Of a stretch of 6,062 nt of DNA, positions 1-6,062 are shown piece after piece. Each line of letters begins with the position of its first letter. The stretch's first letter is position 1. The notes beneath the pieces are model-generated. The model was not told where the DNA came from. It saw only the letters and a list, made by a program, of their open reading frames with translations, and ran no database searches. The translations under genes and the position numbers were made by a program. The stretch is from IMG/VR virus record IMGVR_UViG_3300020029_000021, positions 1 through 6,062 of that record. One strand, given 5' to 3'. Source of the stretch: a virus.

Positions 1-121
1 CCTCGTCGTAAGAGGCTCGAAATTCGTTAAAACACGGCTCGTAAGCCACAGTTTCCGTGGCCGAGGTTGTTCCGAATCCAAATTGAAATCCAGGAACGTC
101 CTGGTATCCAATGTCGTTGTA
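1..121. repeat. Terminal direct repeat, copy 1. It is identical to 5942..6062 and is the overlap left by assembling a circular genome.
   Basis: Base-by-base comparison shows 1..121 equals 5942..6062 (offset 5941). The minus-strand capsid reading frame continues without interruption across the implied junction. Confidence 0.97.
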
Positions 122-1543
122 AATCGGGTTAAAATAATCGGGACCAGTATAATGAAGATAATCCGGGTAAATTCCTGCCCAATAGTAGACAGGGCGAATA
201 CTCAGCATATCAATCATATAACCAGGTTCGCGGAAATAATAAGACTGACGACGACCGAGGCGCTCATTAAAGGCGATAGCACCACCTTGTTGACCAAGAG
301 GGCCACTCGAGGAATCACCTCCAAAATTGTTAAAGCCAGCCTGATTCATAACAACCTGAACGTTAACAGTTTGCGAAGCGCTAAAAAGAAGCTTGGGACG
401 GTCTACATGCTCAATTTTGGAAGCAAAAAACGTCTCCAACCAATCACTATAACGACTACCGCCAGCGCCGAGTAAATCCTTGTACTCCTGGAGACGAGAA
501 GCAATAGCCAGTTGCGGTATAGTGGAAACGCCAGACATGGAAACACCATCAGAACTACCAACGGGAAGTAAACGGCTATAACGGTCAGGATTCGAAGGCA
601 CAACAGCCATCGGGTGAGATACGAGGAACGCTCCAAGCGTGGTAACGGTCGTAGCGCCAGGATCGACAGAGAACTGATTCGTGGGACCTGCGGTAGACAA
701 TGAGGTGCTACCGGGATAGATAGAAGAAACGGGGTACCCATTCTTAGAGGCGGTAATTGTAGCGCCGAGGTCCGAAAGAACTATCTGGGAAAAAAGATTC
801 CCTCTATTATACGTATTATTCGAAGACGACACGGCCGAAGGATAGAACTGACTCTCGAAATAAGCATCCAAAAATTCAAGGTTACCAAATCTTTGAGAAA
901 AGAATCTCGAATCGGCTCCGAACTGAAGAACGTTATACGCAGCACCGGTACTATTAGGAATGAAATACCAACTACCGGGCCAAGCAAAAGAGTAGAGTCC
1001 CCACTGGGAGTAACTGTAGTAATTACGAACAATGTCCCAATAAGCCAAATAAGAGTCGGCAGTACACCAACCTAAAGGGTACGCCAACTGAGCGGCCGAG
1101 AGGTTAGGCGACATAGGGACATTACTGGAGGTCGACGCCGGAATGGAAGCAGGAATGATACGCAACCAACGAAGCAGCGAATTAGAGTAGGGGTAGTTAT
1201 CGGTAGTAAATTCGTAAGAACCAGTCGTCGAAGCGGCAACAAAGTTCAGACTCAAGTTGTTCATATCGAATTTGCTGCTATTCGTCCTCATCTCGGGATG
1301 ATATAGCTGAAGCGGCACCCAAAAGCGATGAAGCCGAACAGTATAGGGGTTAAACGTCGGAACAGCAAGAGGATTGCTACGAACATCAATGCCCTGCTCG
1401 ATAGCTACACGGTCACGAGCATTAATAAAATCGATTCGCACAGGATACAAAATACCCGGTGTGCACGTAAAGGCCTTACTCTCAGGGACGTCGTACCGAG
1501 AGTAGCCATTTACGGTGTGTGAGATAAAAGGTTGTTTTCCCAT
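1..1543 (-). CDS. VP1: Major capsid protein VP1 (Microviridae F/VP1 family), 5' portion of 514 codons plus 1 nt. It runs off the window start and continues at 5941..5694 through the circular junction, giving 596 aa in total.
   Basis: Manual translation from the ATG at 1543..1541 found no in-frame stop down to position 1. The product reads MGKQPFISHTVNGYSRYDVPESKAFTCTPGILYPVRIDFINARDRVAIEQGIDVRSNPLAVPTFNPYTVRLHRFWVPLQLYHPEM ... GGSRYSDWLETFFASKIEHVDRPKLLF ... YYFREPGYMIDMLSIRPVYYWAGIYPDY ... AYEPCFNEFRASYDEV. These segments look like microvirus capsid proteins. The frame (codon ends congruent to 2 mod 3) maps onto the frame of track ORF 5694..5990 after adding 5941. The ORF is absent from the track only because it has no stop inside the window. 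Confidence 0.95.
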   Translation of the reverse strand, partial: MGKQPFISHTVNGYSRYDVPESKAFTCTPGILYPVRIDFINARDRVAIEQGIDVRSNPLAVPTFNPYTVRLHRFWVPLQLYHPEMRTNSSKFDMNNLSLNFVAASTTGSYEFTTDNYPYSNSLLRWLRIIPASIPASTSSNVPMSPNLSAAQLAYPLGWCTADSYLAYWDIVRNYYSYSQWGLYSFAWPGSWYFIPNSTGAAYNVLQFGADSRFFSQRFGNLEFLDAYFESQFYPSAVSSSNNTYNRGNLFSQIVLSDLGATITASKNGYPVSSIYPGSTSLSTAGPTNQFSVDPGATTVTTLGAFLVSHPMAVVPSNPDRYSRLLPVGSSDGVSMSGVSTIPQLAIASRLQEYKDLLGAGGSRYSDWLETFFASKIEHVDRPKLLFSASQTVNVQVVMNQAGFNNFGGDSSSGPLGQQGGAIAFNERLGRRQSYYFREPGYMIDMLSIRPVYYWAGIYPDYLHYTGPDYFNPIYNDIGYQDVPGFQFGFGTTSATETVAYEPCFNEFRASYDE

Positions 1544-1546
1544 AAA

Positions 1547-2617
1547 TTAAATGTTTAGTTGAAGTTTATAATGTTCTCGCCAAAACTGGAGAATGTCCAA
1601 ATCCAACCAAGTAGGGGGATCAAAGTCGGGCATTTTCCGGGAAGAGGAAGAGAAGCGCATTATTTGCTTTTGCTCCCACGTGTATGACGCTCTACGGGAT
1701 ACGGCGGAATTGAGATTGAACCGCTCAACACACAAAGACACAATACGCTTAACCAAAGGAGACTTGCTAAAACGTGCATAAGCGTCAGCAGCGGTAATCG
1801 AGCGTACCACCTCATCCTCCGATTTAAGGTACTTAAGGTAATATCGAGGAATCGCGTATTTATAATTGATATCCTTCTCACTATCATAATAAGACCACGA
1901 CGAAACGCGAGCAGAAGGACGAGGCATATAGCCAAGAAAATCACCAACGCCAGCAGATACGAATTTTCGCGTATAGCGGCGATGCTGGAGGAGGCAAGAT
2001 AAAGGTGTAAGATTTCCATCTACGGTAACATGTTTATCCGAGATTTCCTCGGGATTAAATTGAATCTGTTTAGTAACATACTTTACGCAATAGCGAGCGC
2101 GTTTGTGGGTGGCCTTCGCGAGCCACACAAAGCCAAGGTCTCGAACGGCAGAGCGAATAGTGTTATAGAGAACATTTGTGCCAAACAGAAAACCATGGAA
2201 ATGTAATCGAGGCTCATTTCCTGTCTCCGGGTGAGTGCCGAACTCCTGGAAAAAGGCATGCTTGAACGAATGGCCGAGTTTATGCCGCAAGCGCTCATTG
2301 AAGCGGCGGATGAATCGGGAGGGGTCGAGCAAGGCTTCATTATAATACTTCGGAGCAATAGTTATTGTAATAAAAATAGCCTGCTGATCATTAGCCTTGC
2401 AGTAGGCGAGCTCACGCTCTAGCCTAACAAACCAACTATTACGCTGACGACGCAAGCAGTCTTCACACTTTCCGCAGGGGACCATCAGCCACTGGCGAGC
2501 GACATCCCAGGGTCGAAGAGCTAAAGCCGACTTAGCGACATCAGAACCACTTCGGCAAGGATTTTTCTTGTCGAAATAACGGCGGTTGCGAATCCATATG
2601 GGAGACGAACAAGGCAT
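1547..2617 (-). CDS. VP4: Replication initiation protein VP4 (rolling-circle HUH endonuclease, phage gpA family), 356 aa from the ATG at 2617.
   Basis: The N-terminus MPCSSPIWIRN is typical of microvirus Rep proteins. It has a CxxCxxC element (PCGKCEDCLRRQRNSW), motif 1 (AIFITITIAP), the HUH motif (RLHFHGFLFG) and a double-tyrosine motif (YCVKYVTK, compare phiX174 A YVAKYVNK). The track start at 2638 is a TTG. The ATG at 2617 overlaps the upstream ORF stop as TAATG. The stop lies 3 nt before the VP1 ATG. Confidence 0.93.
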   Translation of the reverse strand: MPCSSPIWIRNRRYFDKKNPCRSGSDVAKSALALRPWDVARQWLMVPCGKCEDCLRRQRNSWFVRLERELAYCKANDQQAIFITITIAPKYYNEALLDPSRFIRRFNERLRHKLGHSFKHAFFQEFGTHPETGNEPRLHFHGFLFGTNVLYNTIRSAVRDLGFVWLAKATHKRARYCVKYVTKQIQFNPEEISDKHVTVDGNLTPLSCLLQHRRYTRKFVSAGVGDFLGYMPRPSARVSSWSYYDSEKDINYKYAIPRYYLKYLKSEDEVVRSITAADAYARFSKSPLVKRIVSLCVERFNLNSAVSRRASYTWEQKQIMRFSSSSRKMPDFDPPTWLDLDILQFWREHYKLQLNI

Positions 2618-2817
2618 TAGAGTAAACTTCGAAGACAATCAAATTTAATACTAGGGTGGTCGAGACGACAACGAATAAGGTAATCATTCGCAGGGGTCTC
2701 GTCGGCGAACCAAGCAATAACAACTCGTTTCCGACCTCTGTATGCGCCAATAGAATAGCGATGAGGAATGCTATTGATAGTAGGGGAGAATCTAGGACGA
2801 AAATCGAAATAATCCAT
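2617..2817 (-). CDS. Hypothetical small, mildly basic protein of 66 aa from the ATG at 2817, possibly translationally coupled to VP4.
   Basis: The product is MDYFDFRPRFSPTINSIPHRYSIGAYRGRKRVVIAWFADETPANDYLIRCRLDHPSIKFDCLRSLL. Its TAA stop (2619..2617) shares one base with the VP4 ATG (2617..2615). It sits where small VP5/J-like proteins sit in related genomes. I recognise no motif. No clear promoter lies between the upstream terminator and this ORF. Confidence 0.5.
   Translation of the reverse strand: MDYFDFRPRFSPTINSIPHRYSIGAYRGRKRVVIAWFADETPANDYLIRCRLDHPSIKFDCLRSLL
2640..2672 (-). promoter_or_regulatory. Candidate Bacteroidota-type promoter P2 for VP4 and downstream genes, located inside ORF66.
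   Basis: The minus strand reads GTTG-N21-TAAATTTG. The -7 box (plus strand caaattta, 2640..2647) matches TAnnTTTG exactly. The -33 box matches TTTG at 3 of 4 positions. The -7 box ends 22 nt upstream of the VP4 ATG. It shares the 9-mer TTGTCGTCT at the -33 position with P1. Confidence 0.35.
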
Positions 2818-2820
2818 AGT

Positions 2821-2864
2821 CAAAAAAAATACTTTGCGCTTCGAAAGACGGTACTTTCGAACGC
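2821..2864 (-). terminator. Hairpin followed by a T8 tract directly upstream of the ORF66 start. It may be a second terminator or attenuator, or a U-rich translation leader.
   Basis: The minus strand reads GCG-TTCGAAAG-TACCGT-CTTTCGAA-(G)-CGC, then AAAGTA, then TTTTTTTT, then GACT-ATG. The core stem is 8 bp and perfect, with 3 further bp across a 1-nt bulge. The 6-nt spacer between stem and T tract is not canonical for an intrinsic terminator. Confidence 0.3.
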
Positions 2865-2967
2865 GAAAACTACTACGTTTCGCCGGCCGACAGCCTTAAC
2901 GGCTGGGACGCTGCGCGTCTTCGGCCTCCATGGCTTCACTCCGTTTGGGATATACCGGCAAAGCCGG
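2863..2967 (-). other. Cluster of GC-rich stem-loops in the large intergenic region, including a compact three-way junction. It is a candidate ssDNA origin or priming structure, or a structured RNA.
   Basis: Hairpin GCGAAA(2863..2868)/TTTCGC(2878..2883). Three-way junction 2885..2926: outer stem GGCCGA/TCGGCC encloses CAGCC-TTAAC-GGCTG (2891..2905) and GACGC-TGC-GCGTC (2907..2919), giving 16 Watson-Crick pairs in 42 nt. Hairpin CCGGC-AAA-GCCGG (2955..2967). No ORF explains this region. Confidence 0.6.
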
Positions 2968-2972
2968 TGGAC

Positions 2973-3008
2973 AAAAAAGCCCACAGGAGAAGGAATATCT
3001 CCTGGGGC
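2973..3008 (-). terminator. Rho-independent terminator downstream of ORF107.
   Basis: The minus strand reads GCCC-CAGGAGA-TATTCCT-TCTCCTG-(T)-GGGC followed directly by TTTTTTG. The stem has 11 bp with one bulge and is GC-rich at its base. The structure begins 45 nt after the ORF107 stop codon. Confidence 0.75.
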
Positions 3009-3053
3009 CTAACAAATCAAAGAACTTTTCCACCAAGCGGGCGGGTTACTACT

Positions 3054-3377
3054 TTAGTTCCCTTTCCCTTCTTCCTGCGACGTGCCTTCATCGGGAGTCA
3101 AATCAAAGTCAAACATAAGAACAAATGTATTGTCGAAAAACTCGACATCAAAATTTGGATACGTGCTCAAGGCGCCCATGAGGCCCGAAACAGAACGATG
3201 CTCAATATAGGGAGAATCAGCAATACTGGAATGCTCAACATAGGTAGAAATGGGGGTACGCTTAAGAGCATCAAGAGAGAGCGCCGAGAACTGTCCATTT
3301 TCAATGTAGCCTACCTGGACAAGATCAATCTTAAAGGCAGGATTAATGCGACGAATAACAACATGAATCTGTGTCAT
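3054..3377 (-). CDS. Hypothetical acidic protein of 107 aa from the ATG at 3377.
   Basis: The product is MTQIHVVIRRINPAFKIDLVQVGYIENGQFSALSLDALKRTPISTYVEHSSIADSPYIEHRSVSGLMGALSTYPNFDVEFFDNTFVLMFDFDLTPDEGTSQEEGKGN. I count about 15 D/E against 7 K/R. The ATG lies 16 nt after the ORF104 stop. The longer track start at 3491 is a GTG and would overlap ORF104 by about 100 nt. A strong terminator follows. I recognise no family. Confidence 0.7.
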   Translation of the reverse strand: MTQIHVVIRRINPAFKIDLVQVGYIENGQFSALSLDALKRTPISTYVEHSSIADSPYIEHRSVSGLMGALSTYPNFDVEFFDNTFVLMFDFDLTPDEGTSQEEGKGN

Positions 3378-3393
3378 AATTAAAGAGGTTGAG

Positions 3394-3708
3394 TTAAAAG
3401 CGAAAAAAGTATTTACAAAAATCTGACCAGCGCCGAGATGCGTCACACCAGAATTCACGACCTTCGGGGGTTGATTCGAAAAGGAATGCACCAGTCATAA
3501 GAAAAGAATAATCGGTAACGGGAAATGCTGCATAAGTACGAATGCGAAGCCGAATGTAGCTGCGAGCAGACATAGTAGTGTGTCTGTCCGCCACGAGATT
3601 CTTCGCGAATCTACGATAAAGACGATTTCGAATAAGCCACTCAACGAAAAGGTAGTCTAAAGCATCAACTCGTAAATCAAACTGACTAAAAGATTTTTGT
3701 GCTTTCAT
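3394..3708 (-). CDS. Hypothetical basic protein of 104 aa.
   Basis: The product starts at an ATG and reads MKAQKSFSQFDLRVDALDYLFVEWLIRNRLYRRFAKNLVADRHTTMSARSYIRLRIRTYAAFPVTDYSFLMTGAFLFESTPEGREFWCDASRRWSDFCKYFFRF. I count about 18 K/R against 11 D/E. The C-terminal F-x-F-x-x-TPEG-x-x-FW-x(6)-W pattern looks like something I have seen in small uncharacterised phage proteins, but I cannot name a family. It is the first gene after candidate promoter P1. Confidence 0.75.
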   Translation of the reverse strand: MKAQKSFSQFDLRVDALDYLFVEWLIRNRLYRRFAKNLVADRHTTMSARSYIRLRIRTYAAFPVTDYSFLMTGAFLFESTPEGREFWCDASRRWSDFCKYFFRF

Positions 3709-3734
3709 AATAGTGTGGTTATTGGTTTACAATG

Positions 3735-3765
3735 CAAACATACAACAAAGGGAATAGACGACAAA
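3735..3765 (-). promoter_or_regulatory. Candidate Bacteroidota sigma-AB type promoter P1 (-33 TTTG / -7 TAnnTTTG) driving ORF104 and ORF107.
   Basis: The minus strand reads TTTG-tcgtctattccctttgttg-TATGTTTG. The -33 box is plus-strand caaa at 3762..3765, the spacer is 19 nt, and the -7 box is plus-strand caaacata at 3735..3742. It lies in the 80-nt gap between the VP2 stop and the ORF104 start, and the -7 box ends 26 nt upstream of the ATG. Confidence 0.65.
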
Positions 3766-3788
3766 GTTCAAAAGGTCGAAAAGAATGT

Positions 3789-5057
3789 TTAATTTCTCCC
3801 ACGATAGGTGCGGCGGGCATAGGTAGCACCTTCTCTGTCGCCGTTAGGTCCGTAAAACTCCCTCAACTCTTCGTAACCTTCGGGTCCGGCAGGACCTGCG
3901 GCCTTGCGACCAACATAGGAAGCACCGGCAACGCCTGCGGCAGTAGCAAAGGACCGAATAATGTCATGAGCAAGACGAAGGCGAGAATTACGCAAATCCC
4001 AGCGAGCATTCCCAGTCTCAAGTTGAGCAGCTTCAGCAGCAGCAGACTTCAAAATAGCCGTAGTTTCGGCAACTTTCATCATCTTCGTCTCAACGACCTC
4101 ACCTTTATCATTGCGAATCTGAACAGGAACTTCCTTCTCCCAGTTGAGTTCATACCAATTCTGCAAATCCTTGAGTTCTTGATAGTTAAGTTTCGTACGA
4201 GACTTGGACTCAGCAGCGGCGGAAACGTTGGCGATAGCCGAAGACCAGGCAACAGCGAGGGCAGCTCCAGCTTGAGGCTCAAACCAATCATTCACCATAC
4301 GAATATTCTGATATTTTTCCTCCAGAATGCCAGCCATAGCCATAATAGAAGACATTTTGTAACCTTGAGTAATATTGGCTAAATAAGCGTCAATCGCCAC
4401 AATCTGAGCCTGCGCTTCATGAAGGTTGGCGAGCTCACGGGCATCTTTGACATTATGCTGCGCAATCTGTAATTCAAGATTATCCATTTTCTCTCGCCAC
4501 TCTTGCGTATGAGTGTTACCACGAAGATTTTCTGCTTCCGCATCATCTCGGTTAGCGGCAGCAGTATTGCGGTCAACCGTGGACCGAGCAACCATATTCT
4601 GCGCGATAGCGGCGGGGTCACCGGGGACGAAAGCACCAGGGCTAACTGGAGAACCGCCGGAAGGGCCGGAAGCGGAGGGCATGCCTGCAGAACCGCCAGA
4701 CATAGTAGCGTTGATACCAACACCCGAAGAGCCTAAAACAGCAGCAGGGGTTACGCCAGCCTTCAAATAACGGTCAAAGACCTTTGAGGGATCATTATAT
4801 GAATTTTCATAATCAAACTGCTTTTGCCAATTAGTATAAGAAAGCTCAGACTGTCTCTGCATCTGCTCCAAAGCATATTTCTGCTGAAGAGCCATCTGCT
4901 TCTGCTGAAAACGCCATTGGCGACGAGCGTTCATGCCGCCAAAAAGCTGGCCTAAAAAGCCATTAATCAGGCCGGTAGTGCCGGTAGAGGCGGCAGATTC
5001 TCCAAGGGCGCGGCCGAAAGAGGCAGCACCGGCGGCTGCAATAACAGGGGCGGGCAT
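3789..5057 (-). CDS. VP2: Minor capsid / DNA pilot protein VP2-like, 422 aa.
   Basis: It has a Gly/Ala-rich hydrophobic N-terminus (MPAPVIAAAGAASFGRALGE...GLINGFLGQLFGG) and a Q-rich helix (RRQWRFQQKQMALQQKYALEQMQRQ). FDRYLKAGVTPAAVLG resembles the AGLNP..L motif I recall in microvirus pilot proteins. It also has a Gly/Ser/Pro-rich linker and a long helical, coiled-coil-like centre (REKMDNLELQIAQHNVKDARELANLHEAQAQIVAIDAYLANI). Its size and gene context fit VP2. Confidence 0.85.
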   Translation of the reverse strand: MPAPVIAAAGAASFGRALGESAASTGTTGLINGFLGQLFGGMNARRQWRFQQKQMALQQKYALEQMQRQSELSYTNWQKQFDYENSYNDPSKVFDRYLKAGVTPAAVLGSSGVGINATMSGGSAGMPSASGPSGGSPVSPGAFVPGDPAAIAQNMVARSTVDRNTAAANRDDAEAENLRGNTHTQEWREKMDNLELQIAQHNVKDARELANLHEAQAQIVAIDAYLANITQGYKMSSIMAMAGILEEKYQNIRMVNDWFEPQAGAALAVAWSSAIANVSAAAESKSRTKLNYQELKDLQNWYELNWEKEVPVQIRNDKGEVVETKMMKVAETTAILKSAAAEAAQLETGNARWDLRNSRLRLAHDIIRSFATAAGVAGASYVGRKAAGPAGPEGYEELREFYGPNGDREGATYARRTYRGRN

Positions 5058-5058
5058 G

Positions 5059-5250
5059 CTACATATTAGTTAAATTGTTAGAGCGAATAATGTAATCGAC
5101 ACGCACTGTATCGACGTGAACACCGCTACGCTGCATTCGTGCTTGAGCAGAACAAGATGAAAGAAAGAAAGCGGCCAAAGCAGCAACGATAGACGAAACG
5201 AGTGTCCAAAACGCTTTCGACTTATAAAAGGGTTGTTTAGTATCAGACAT
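5059..5250 (-). CDS. Small predicted lipoprotein of 63 aa (31-aa mature peptide). It is a candidate lysis or receptor-masking/superinfection-exclusion protein.
   Basis: From the ATG at 5250 the product is MSDTKQPFYKSKAFWTLVSSIVAALAAFFLSSCSAQARMQRSGVHVDTVRVDYIIRSNNLTNM. It has a Lys-containing n-region, a hydrophobic h-region, and the lipobox L-S-S-C. The TAG stop is 1 nt from the VP2 ATG (ATGTAGCATG). The longer track start at 5355 is a GTG and would read through the intergenic hairpin. Confidence 0.7.
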   Translation of the reverse strand: MSDTKQPFYKSKAFWTLVSSIVAALAAFFLSSCSAQARMQRSGVHVDTVRVDYIIRSNNLTNM

Positions 5251-5281
5251 AGGGATAAAATTTAAAGAACGATAGAAAAAT

Positions 5282-5353
5282 GCGCGGCCTCTCCTGCAGT
5301 CGCTACCAATAACCTTCAGCAATTCACGAACTCTTGCAGAAAGGGGTCCGCGC
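5282..5353 (-). other. Long imperfect hairpin in the ORF98/lipoprotein intergenic region. It may be a leaky terminator or an ssDNA structural element.
   Basis: GCGCGG(5282..5287) pairs with CCGCGC(5348..5353). CC(5288..5289) pairs with GG(5345..5346) across a 1-nt bulge. CTGCAG(5294..5299) pairs with TTGCAG(5334..5339), with one G-T pair. The loop is about 34 nt. On the minus strand the hairpin is followed by ATTTTTCT. Confidence 0.45.
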
Positions 5354-5384
5354 ACGTAGCATATATCGTCAAGTAAAGGATATA

Positions 5385-5681
5385 CTATTTTTCTTCAGAA
5401 TTGGAAGATTTAGAAGTAGGCCTCGACCTATCCAACTCTGAATCAATAAGTTCCTGACCAACCTCGAGGCCATCAAACTTATCCATACGAGAGAAAGAAT
5501 TAGGGTCAAAGTCAATCTCAGGGTTAAACTTTTCGCCCTTATCGAAGTCAGACGAGGACGCCTCGACGTCCGGACGACCAGGGAGAACGTCAACGGAACC
5601 AGAACCATCGAGAACAGAAAGAATACGCTGACCGCGAGAAACATAGGCGGGGGCGTCCTCAAGAAGCCATTCAAGTGCCAT
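5385..5681 (-). CDS. Hypothetical strongly acidic protein of 98 aa. It is a possible scaffolding-type protein, suggested by position and composition only.
   Basis: The ATG at 5681 lies 12 nt after the VP1 stop. The product is MALEWLLEDAPAYVSRGQRILSVLDGSGSVDVLPGRPDVEASSSDFDKGEKFNPEIDFDPNSFSRMDKFDGLEVGQELIDSELDRSRPTSKSSNSEEK. It is rich in D/E and looks largely disordered. I recognise no family. Confidence 0.7.
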   Translation of the reverse strand: MALEWLLEDAPAYVSRGQRILSVLDGSGSVDVLPGRPDVEASSSDFDKGEKFNPEIDFDPNSFSRMDKFDGLEVGQELIDSELDRSRPTSKSSNSEEK

Positions 5682-5693
5682 AAAATCAATGTA

Positions 5694-6062
5694 TTAACGA
5701 TTAGACAAACGGGTTGCAAAAGTTTTATTTACCAGATTCTTCTTCTGAACGGAATACGAAAGGTTAATGAAAAAATTGTCTTCCCTCTTAGAGAAAAACG
5801 GCGAGTTAACCTGGTCAATATCCACAAACAGGAGAGAGTAGTACTGGTTATAGCTCGCAGACAAAACGCGCTGCTGGACCCAATAAGAGTAAAGGGGTAC
5901 AGCGCTGTCGGAAACCTGGAACCGAGACAACTGACCCATGACCTCGTCGTAAGAGGCTCGAAATTCGTTAAAACACGGCTCGTAAGCCACAGTTTCCGTG
6001 GCCGAGGTTGTTCCGAATCCAAATTGAAATCCAGGAACGTCCTGGTATCCAATGTCGTTGTA
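5694..6062 (-). CDS. VP1: Major capsid protein VP1, 3' portion. 5694..5941 holds the unique C-terminal codons and stop. 5942..6062 duplicates 1..121.
   Basis: It is in the same frame as 1..1543 after the 5941-nt offset. The junction codon GTC (positions 1/5941/5940) gives ...SYDEVMGQLSRFQVSDSAVPLYSYWVQQRVLSASYNQYYSLLFVDIDQVNSPFFSKREDNFFINLSYSVQKKNLVNKTFATRLSNR followed by a stop (TAA at 5696..5694). The M at 5990 in the ORF track is an internal GTG (Val). Confidence 0.95.
   Translation of the reverse strand, partial: YNDIGYQDVPGFQFGFGTTSATETVAYEPCFNEFRASYDEVMGQLSRFQVSDSAVPLYSYWVQQRVLSASYNQYYSLLFVDIDQVNSPFFSKREDNFFINLSYSVQKKNLVNKTFATRLSNR
5942..6062. repeat. Terminal direct repeat, copy 2 (identical to 1..121).
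   Basis: It is an exact 121-nt match to the window start. Confidence 0.97.

Follow-up and report, generated by a model that had tools for sequence, protein, structure and literature searches.

How complementary-strand synthesis, the first and obligatory step of infection, begins is essentially undescribed for the thousands of uncultured microviruses beyond phiX174 and G4. In G4, St-1 and alpha3 (Microviridae, Bullavirinae), the complementary-strand origin, ori(-), consists of stable hairpins clustered between genes on the packaged strand. Mini-hairpins of the sequences GCGNAGC and GCGNNAGC are extraordinarily stable as DNA (melting temperature 70-76 C for GCGNAGC, against 39 C for r(GCGAAAGC)), are poorly bound by single-stranded DNA-binding protein (SSB), and occur at the complementary-strand priming sites of G4 (GCGAAAGC) and St-1/alpha3 (GCGTTAGC), as well as in ssiA of RSF1010 (CCGAAGG) and in the single-stranded DNA (ssDNA) promoters of N4, as Kimoto and Hirao set out in a review (PMC13037366). 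The T_F terminator hairpin of phiX174 overlaps its ori(-), a PriA site, and the viral-strand origin, ori(+), lies inside gene A (bioRxiv 10.64898/2026.07.25.740675). Plasmid single-strand origins (sso) are structured and orientation-specific, fall into several classes, limit host range and are shuffled as cassettes (PMC5703833). Conserved, compensated hairpins upstream of Rep have further been proposed, though not proven, as negative-strand initiation sites in the reekeekee- and roodoodoo-microviruses (PMC9865509). Here we describe a 199-nt non-coding stretch in IMG/VR virus record IMGVR_UViG_3300020029_000021, of which positions 1 to 6,062 were analysed (hereafter, the window), and which combines two separate devices, a transcription terminator and a portable structured cassette. 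The window is a gut Microviridae genome, circular and 5,941 nt long with a terminal redundancy of 121 nt (1-121 = 5942-6062), and its closest GenBank relatives are uncultured Microviridae of pig, dog, civet and musk-deer faeces.

Every long open reading frame (ORF) lies on the minus strand of the window, and the mRNA-sense strand is thus its reverse complement, on which all structures are given below; in known microviruses this is also the strand that is packaged. The region flagged by the original prediction (2818-3053) lies between the structural genes and the replication gene. Its first device, module A (2973-3008), is an ordinary intrinsic terminator that ends the transcript of the structural gene block. 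The second, comprising hairpin B with an adjoining GGTATAT box, a Y-shaped three-way junction and hairpin D, may, by analogy with the systems above, be a portable signal for initiating the complementary strand, borne on the packaged, T-rich strand, and we assign this reading a probability of roughly 0.5. On incoming ssDNA, GC-clamped arms with G-N-A and G-NN(N)-A loops would fold into a very stable three-way junction, which would resist melting by SSB and so form a unique landmark on a circle otherwise coated with SSB; a primase, RNA polymerase or PriA-type primosome of the host would then recognise the junction together with GGTATAT, the adjacent segment GTGAAGCCATGGA and hairpin D, and lay down the primer. 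We infer that the fold exists in vivo and that the cassette is where priming begins. The proposal of a complementary-strand origin made in the original prediction agrees with the stems, loops, Rep independence and orientation described below, but not in its full extent, as the terminator proves separate, one of the predicted hairpins has been dropped and part of the region is coding.

The density of structure that had been claimed for positions 2818-3053 was borne out, with z-scores of -5.04, -5.40, -4.80 and -4.88 against dinucleotide shuffles (both strands, as RNA and as DNA) and 0/200 shuffles folding as well in each case. When the whole genome was scanned in 120-nt windows on the viral strand with DNA parameters, 2841-2960 was the top outlier (z = -4.32; mean -0.23, sd 1.16). 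Module A, directly downstream of a stop codon, consists of a GC-rich stem-loop (2979-3008) followed on the sense strand by TTTTTT (2973-2978); it was listed first among terminator-like sites in a terminator scan (site 3004-2984, then TGGGCTTTTT), folds alone with z = -4.6 as DNA and -4.4 as RNA, and in the 65-sequence alignment described below has four pairs with double changes and many G.U pairs on the mRNA-sense strand. Module B (2950-2968) is the hairpin ACCGGC-TTT-GCCGGT (2954-2968; z = -4.4 alone) running into the GGTATAT box (2950-2956), in which TAT is invariant. The Y-junction itself, module C1 (2885-2926; z = -3.1 alone), folds exactly as had been predicted, with 6+5+5 = 16 pairs and two unpaired junction bases: the outer stem is GGCCGA/TCGGCC, arm 1 (2907-2919) is GAC-GCGCAGC-GTC and arm 2 (2891-2905) is CAGCC-GTTAA-GGCTG. 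Hairpin D, TTCGAAAG-TACCGT-CTTTCGAA (2840-2861, extended by CGC/GCG to 2836-2865; z = -3.5 and -3.3 alone), is the most conserved piece and common to three very divergent microvirus lineages; its near-invariance suggests sequence-specific recognition. The three simple hairpins of the original prediction, namely the terminator, CCGGC/GCCGG and TTCGAAAG/CTTTCGAA, thus each fold on their own (z = -3.3 to -4.6) and are conserved in relatives.

Relatives were found by ORF107-anchored and DNA-pattern searches, which gave ~150 loci in IMG/VR and 43 in metagenomes, with the human gut as the main source; the exact pattern of hairpin D occurs in 84 viral and 43 metagenome contigs. One locus, L160, was a chance match in GC-rich coding DNA and was excluded. 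In the 65 sequences that share the window's version of the junction (Y1), the structure composed of terminator, B, Y and D is paired in 99.2% of cells, with ten pairs changed on both sides (158 cells), whereas slid partners are paired in 31-47%. The stems are therefore conserved with compensatory changes, the outcome that the original prediction had put forward as a check. In the Y-junction with its stalk, all 19 pairs hold in 65/65 sequences, five of them changed on both sides; among 36 unique junctions the outer stem appears as GCTCGA, GGCCGA, GCCCGA, GTCCGA, GACCGA or GCGCGA, each with its exact complement, and the stem of arm 2 as CGGCC, CAGCC, CCGCC, TGGCT or CGGCT with matching partners. 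Hairpin B occurs as CCGGC, CCGAA and CCGGA, all compensated, and its pair 69-76 is GC in 33 sequences and AU in 32, again fully compensated. An alternative GGCTTT/GAAGCC pairing, which appears in the RNA fold of the single sequence, was rejected, being impossible in the CCGAA and CCGGA variants, which retain hairpin B. Neither hairpin D nor the stalk extension, in which GCC 2932-2934 pairs with GGC 2882-2884 across an ATGGA internal loop (65/65 paired), provides covariation evidence, since both are invariant, and the TTT/AAA extension of hairpin D is compensated in part only. The GCC belongs to the conserved and mostly unpaired segment GTGAAGCCATGGA (2927-2941), with invariant A, GCC and GGAG columns.

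A further hairpin that had been predicted, GCGAAA/TTTCGC (2863-2883), was not upheld: one of its pairs is broken without compensation in 42/65 relatives and another in 19/65, it is 84% paired, which is no better than shuffles, and RNAalifold left it out. We regard this stretch as a linker between the Y-junction and hairpin D, and in the consensus fold parts of both arms find other partners, the 5' arm pairing through its GC with the stalk of the junction, the 3' arm through its CGC with the extension of hairpin D. Incidentally, adjacent positions flanking the Y-junction covary (alignment columns 92-93 and 163-164, about 2942-2943 and 2873-2874 of the window), reading AC...GT in 24-28 sequences and GT...AC in 30-35, which may represent a 2-bp closing helix, a tertiary contact or clade structure. 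Compensated hairpins beside Rep also characterise the reekeekee- and roodoodoo-microviruses, but those are simple hairpins in much smaller genomes, and the accessible part of that report makes no mention of a three-way junction, a loop rule, cassette exchange or a link to strand skew (PMC9865509). The cassette belongs with these known hairpins but is set apart by the tight junction with two mini-hairpin arms and invariant flanking elements, the modularity, the horizontal spread among lineages whose capsids are unrelated and whose Reps are distant, and the coupling of orientation to composition.

The loops of the junction follow a rule. In arm 1, the loop is G-N-A with all four bases at N (GCA in 11, GAA in 15, GTA in 6 and GGA in 2), giving GCGNAGC, represented in the window by GCGCAGC at 2910-2916; in arm 2 it is always G...A (GTTAA, GTTA or GTTGA), and in the shorter junctions of the c/d class the arms are CCGCGAAGCGG and CAGCCGAAGGCTG. 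The triloops and the four-nucleotide loops fit the DNA mini-hairpin motifs catalogued previously (PMC13037366). The motif is not self-complementary, its complement being C-TNC-G, and across the region in 69 genomes, 86 occurrences lie on the viral (sense) strand against a single one on the complement. In G4, taken as a positive control, the only GNNA match (GGCGAAAGCC, 3976-3985) falls inside the annotated primer (3970-3997), adjoining the annotated origin (3998), and the F-G region folds with z = -4.69, as against -4.3 to -5.4 for the region in the window. The likeness extends to a cluster of stable intergenic hairpins on the packaged strand (judged here from T-richness), to a GCGNNAGC/GCGNAGC mini-hairpin at the priming site, matched by the GCGCAGC of arm 1, and to a position beside the end of a transcription unit. 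The two differ in that G4 has three side-by-side hairpins between the capsid and spike genes, whereas the cassette has two mini-hairpin arms within a tight three-way junction, flanked by invariant elements, upstream of rep, and, unlike the G4 origin, has been exchanged between distant lineages. The sequences are also dissimilar, and the cassette is not a homologue of the G4 origin.

An indication of a DNA-level role comes from a lineage, typified by locus L074, in which the cassette occupies the equivalent intergenic region upstream of Rep but is inverted relative to every gene. This lineage comprises four IMG/VR contigs (from four samples) and ten gut-metagenome contigs, carrying Y1, C2 or D-only versions of the cassette, and Phage_F and Rep domains show that its genes are real. 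Its coding strand has A at 0.41-0.46 and T at 0.07-0.09 at four-fold degenerate sites, mirroring the window's clade and G4; across a wider set of L074-type loci (L074, L096, L102, L114, L171, L172 and L174; from metagenomes, L185, L188, L190, L191, L195, L198, L201, L204, L212 and L215) the values are A 0.34-0.74 and T 0.02-0.11, which makes this strand strongly A- and purine-rich. Distant relatives whose VP1 is 46-48% identical also have an A-rich coding strand. By comparison, the values are T 0.46-0.51 and A 0.10-0.12 in the window's clade, T 0.35-0.44 and A 0.08-0.09 in a second lineage (L073), and T 0.47, C 0.27, A 0.16 and G 0.09 in G4, for which the packaged strand is known. Non-coding DNA with the cassette masked is skewed with the same sign, which excludes codon selection as the cause. 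In 132/132 extracts from viral contigs (some overlapping), among them the four inverted IMG/VR contigs, it is the T-rich strand that bears the cassette in its sense orientation, and free metagenome contigs agree, including ten with genes on the opposite strand. L172, an independent relative which has none of the three cassettes, carries two mini-hairpins (GTCGAAGAC and GCCGTAAGGC) upstream of Rep on the T-rich non-coding strand, and no mini-hairpin was found on the coding strand of that region. In the inverted lineage (L171, L172), a terminator-like hairpin with a T-run remains on the coding strand; as the terminator keeps the orientation of the genes while the cassette flips, the two are separate elements, contrary to the original prediction, in which the terminator formed part of the same device.

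A preference for T at synonymous sites (NNT) has been described as the signature of a strand that spends time single-stranded (PMC3278643). In these uncultured phages the T-rich strand is thus probably the packaged strand, and the cassette would have to lie on that single strand whatever the direction of transcription. That its orientation follows the T-rich strand argues against an element acting in cis in mRNA, and for a role in the polarity of DNA replication. Further, the L074 lineage combines a fully equilibrated skew with a cassette near-identical to those found elsewhere, which implies that the polarity is old and that the cassette arrived recently, in the orientation matching the T-rich strand; this order speaks for a complementary-strand signal rather than for a cassette that would set the polarity itself. 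Together these findings suggest that L074-type phages replicate and package with reversed polarity, that is, the antisense strand. No report of reversed skew or antisense packaging in Microviridae was found in the literature, of which our coverage is incomplete. The compound proposition, that the cassette is a transferable, host-read complementary-strand origin and that the L074-like lineage (with VP1 relatives down to 46% identity) packages the antisense strand, is put forward tentatively, as less likely than not.

The cassette also moves independently of the replication protein. Its central part exists as unrelated versions, namely Y1, the 110-nt C2, and the shorter c/d regions in which the terminator stem doubles as the stalk of the Y-junction, yet all fold into three-way junctions, and the centre has been replaced mosaic-wise between conserved B and D flanks. 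Within a single VP4 cluster (<=10% divergence), Reps that are ~90% identical adjoin D+Y1, C2 without D, c/d regions without D and GGTATAT, D+C2, or Y1 without D; conversely, in two other lineages the Rep is 26-31% identical to that of the window while the cassette retains 85-93% nucleotide identity, and the capsids of those lineages were undetectable by tblastn with the window's VP1. Such decoupling from the Rep clade matches elements read by the host rather than a Rep-specific viral-strand origin. In L014, an IMG/VR member of the window's clade, hairpin B and the Y-junction are kept but D is replaced by an unrelated short hairpin, GCGTCCTTACGC, so that even the most conserved module can be swapped. 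A metagenome contig of 8,343 nt, L203, has two copies of hairpin D with C2, 2.65 kb apart, in a partly duplicated L073-type genome, which could mean that a prophage is rearranged or repeated in tandem, or that the assembly is at fault.

In this exchange the cassette resembles the elements ssoA, ssoU, ssoT, ssoW, ssoL (of rolling-circle plasmids) and ssiA/ssiB (of RSF1010), which are likewise non-coding stretches of ~150-200 nt with extensive secondary structure, occur as several unrelated classes beside similar Reps, are shuffled irrespective of Rep, and join short motifs that are conserved to structured parts that vary (PMC5703833). Sso work on one strand only; the cassette may depend on orientation in a comparable way, its sense strand being always the T-rich one, with one informative lineage. 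The CCGAAGG mini-hairpin of ssiA is the heptamer of the c/d regions. The sso belong to plasmids of Firmicutes and Proteobacteria, the cassette to phage genomes. The NAGCGT of arm 1 resembles what we take to be the CS-6 motif (TAGCGT) of sso, which serves as a lead only. With phiX174, the locus shares the placement of a terminator and a (putative) complementary-strand origin in one short intergenic region and, if the proposal holds, structure-specific recognition; the overlap seen in phiX174 is paralleled in the c/d relatives, but the single long imperfect hairpin of phiX174 contrasts with a terminator and cassette that are separable here, to the point of facing opposite ways in the L074 lineage.

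The alternative that survives best, though we consider it unlikely, casts the cassette as the viral-strand, (+), origin or as its carrier, with VP4 reading hairpin D or GGTATAT beside a branched structure, much as the Rep of AAV reads a T-shaped hairpin. A complete origin module would then set which strand is displaced and packaged, as does the f1 origin in + and - phagemids, where the f1/M13 module works either way round relative to the genes and its orientation decides the packaged strand. Such a module, holding both origins, would account for a cassette that turns over with respect to the genes and yet keeps to the T-rich strand; what is invariant in D and GGTATAT is the sequence and not merely the structure, as in a protein site; the block stands directly upstream of rep in two lineages; and nick-site motifs can be common to very divergent HUH Reps, as in CRESS-DNA viruses. 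These points are countered by the free combination of Reps ~90% identical with differing cassettes, some of them lacking D, by cassettes 85-93% identical where the Reps are ~28% identical, by an L074 polarity that predates its recent cassette, and by the location of the phiX174 (+) origin inside gene A. The f1/M13 intergenic region is, by analogy, laid out like that of the window, with a terminator-like hairpin, (-) origin hairpins and then elements beside the initiator gene, but it belongs to a different family with no sequence relation, its (+) origin probably has no counterpart within the cassette, and our promoter scan, a scan of linear sequence, found no mimic of -35/-10 elements.

A role of the hairpins in RNA, in cis, either as 3' stabilisers or processing sites behind a leaky terminator or as a 5' leader for ORF66 and VP4, is in our view improbable. 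In the window's clade the folding strand is the mRNA-sense strand, the region, which folds equally well in either chemistry, RNA or DNA, lies between the terminator and the next start codon, and the intergenic hairpins of phiX174 do have transcriptional roles. Set against this, in the L074 lineage the cassette runs antisense to all genes, and a terminator-like hairpin stays on the coding strand; this observation also weakens the structured RNA that the original prediction had offered as an alternative, in so far as it would act in cis. In the L073 lineage, moreover, the cassette sits within a ~1-kb non-coding region that does not adjoin rep. Arm 1 has a G-N-A triloop, the four-nucleotide loop of arm 2 (GTTA; GUUA as RNA) is not of the GNRA or UNCG type, and RNA versions of such mini-hairpins are much less stable. 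An Rfam scan of the flagged region, which had been suggested as a check, gave no family match even at a permissive threshold, returning two sub-threshold chance hits (E = 6-9), and ARAGORN detected no transfer RNA (tRNA) or transfer-messenger RNA (tmRNA).

We give similarly little credence to a recombination-prone or selfish mobile cassette devoid of any replication role, or to a duplex DNA binding site maintained by flank-driven exchange, of which the 8-bp inverted repeat of D with its 6-bp spacer, as an operator for a dimeric regulator, would be an example. Horizontal spread across three lineages, mosaic replacement of the centre between the B and D flanks, the lack of individual modules in some relatives, and the palindromic-operator geometry of D would all be accommodated. 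A mobile element would, however, be expected to scatter, whereas the cassette is present as one copy per genome at a fixed locus, and hairpin D gave 0 hits in 185,579 bacterial and archaeal genomes. Pairing is needless for duplex binding, but six outer-stem variants are compensated; further points against are a loop rule that is strand-specific by 86 to 1 and an orientation that is always that of the T-rich strand.

Very unlikely, in turn, is an independent gene for a small non-coding RNA, in which GGTATAT would serve as a -10-like box and D would form the 3' hairpin. A conserved TATAT box does precede a structured core with a hairpin at its end, and a T-run follows D in the window, and an autonomous gene could face either way; yet a scan for sigma-70-like promoters found no site in the region, and a genome-wide count under the shuffle expectation, in a scan that reads linear sequence rather than hairpin duplexes and whose promoter type may differ from that of the host. 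The T-run after D is also variable in the clade and absent in the L073 and L074 lineages, Rfam has no match, and the association with the T-rich strand would have to be coincidental. The region may alternatively hold a packaging signal, the other possibility named in the original prediction. That the cassette is an attP or dif-like site used by host Xer recombinases for prophage integration can be dismissed, for although a cassette-bearing L073-like lineage is integrated beside bacterial genes with the cassette <=~0.6 kb from one prophage end, six independent integrated copies lose their phage homology at rotated L073 coordinates 3546-3569, a junction ~550 nt from hairpin D that leaves the cassette internal to the prophage.

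The integrated L073-like loci (L196, L205, L194, L209, L180, L192 and L127), whose neighbours include ZnuA, FocA, an ABC transporter, ArgRS and RelA/SpoT, share as an att core the ~24-nt segment at rotated L073 coordinates 3546-3569, within the 1-kb non-coding region, and could identify the host of this cassette-bearing lineage. Searches of bacterial genomes with hairpin D and VP1 returned no integrated relatives of the window's own clade.

Several points weigh against the cassette as a complementary-strand initiation signal. A blastn-short comparison of the region with the G4 genome gave chance matches of 9-13 nt, none of them in the origin. Although 0/500 shuffles reach the pairing and double changes observed in the 65 sequences, this control can also be exceeded by related sequences that lack the structure, and a strand test based on junction wobbles (4 G.T vs 1 A.C) has too few cells to help. 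Some close relatives (classes b, c and d) do without hairpins D and B, so that no module is indispensable. The argument from orientation depends on one informative lineage, whose Y1 and C2 versions were perhaps swapped by homologous recombination and may thus record one event, and in the window's clade the viral ssDNA and the mRNA have the same sense, such that roles in DNA and RNA are inseparable in the window genome alone. Equating the T-rich with the packaged strand is itself an inference, and the short non-coding DNA of G4 has almost no AT skew. Finally, a search for VP1 relatives in GTDB genomes revealed no prophage that would point to a host.

If the cassette is nevertheless a host-read signal that moves between unrelated microviruses, then it would be a determinant of host range in the manner of plasmid sso, and a marker of the packaged strand. 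It offers a sequence-defined candidate, abundant in pig, pet and human gut samples, together with a structural rule, a three-way junction with GNA- and GNNA-capped arms, for which natural variants are directly testable. Its orientation likewise makes the question of whether all Microviridae package the coding strand directly testable.

The genes around the region are arranged, all on the minus strand, as VP1 (capsid, from 1543 downwards and wrapping around), VP2 (pilot protein, 5057-3789), ORF104, ORF107 (3377-3054), ORF66 (2817-2617, with its ATG at 2815-2817) and VP4/Rep, an HUH endonuclease (2638-1547). Pfam and PHROGs searches that included ORF66, ORF107, ORF104, ORF98 and the small ORFs produced matches solely for Rep and the pilot protein. 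Upstream of the ORF66 start codon lies an A/T-rich leader, AAAGTATTTTTTTTGACT (2818-2835), which is variable, and T-rich in most relatives. Two mechanical minus-strand ORFs within the region, one of 54 aa (2820-2984) and one of 46 aa (2896-3036), were rejected as coding, since relatives show 1-nt indels (GTTAA vs GTTA, GCGTAACG vs GCG-AACG) and paired compensatory changes.

At the 5' edge of the region, by contrast, a short minus-strand ORF (3017-3091, TGA stop at 3017-3019) encodes a conserved and highly basic 24-aa product, MKARRRKKGKGTKVVTRPLGGKVL, and overlaps the 3' end of ORF107 in a different frame. Relatives vary in a codon-like manner, at third positions and with TGA, TAA or TAG as the stop, and 44 peptide variants of 24-25 aa have conservative K/R changes. 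The final 37 nt of this ORF (3017-3053) lie inside the flagged region, and the true non-coding stretch is therefore 2818-3016; the 236 nt originally described as non-coding are so over those 199 nt but not over the remainder. The product is similar in size and charge to the 25-aa J protein of G4 and, although Pfam and PHROG searches with it gave no match, is a candidate DNA-binding or packaging protein of the J/VP8 type. The ORF is left unannotated in the GenBank records of the relatives examined, and recognising a J-like gene here would correct that annotation.

Elsewhere in the genome, a second non-coding region (5253-5384, minus strand) retains 86-89% identity over ~135 nt in otherwise unrelated microviruses, where it is also unannotated. 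It contains a long imperfect hairpin, GCGCGGACCCC...GGAGAGGCCGCGC, followed by ATTTTT, with a modest fold (z = -1.85), and may be another terminator or a regulatory element. The adjacent small ORF (5059-5252, minus strand), whose product was without a match in Pfam and PHROG, begins MSDTKQPFYKSKAFWTLVSSIVAALAAFFLSSCSAQ... and has a hydrophobic N-terminal stretch ending in an L-S-S-C lipobox-like motif, features compatible with a possible lipoprotein that may act in lysis or exclusion.

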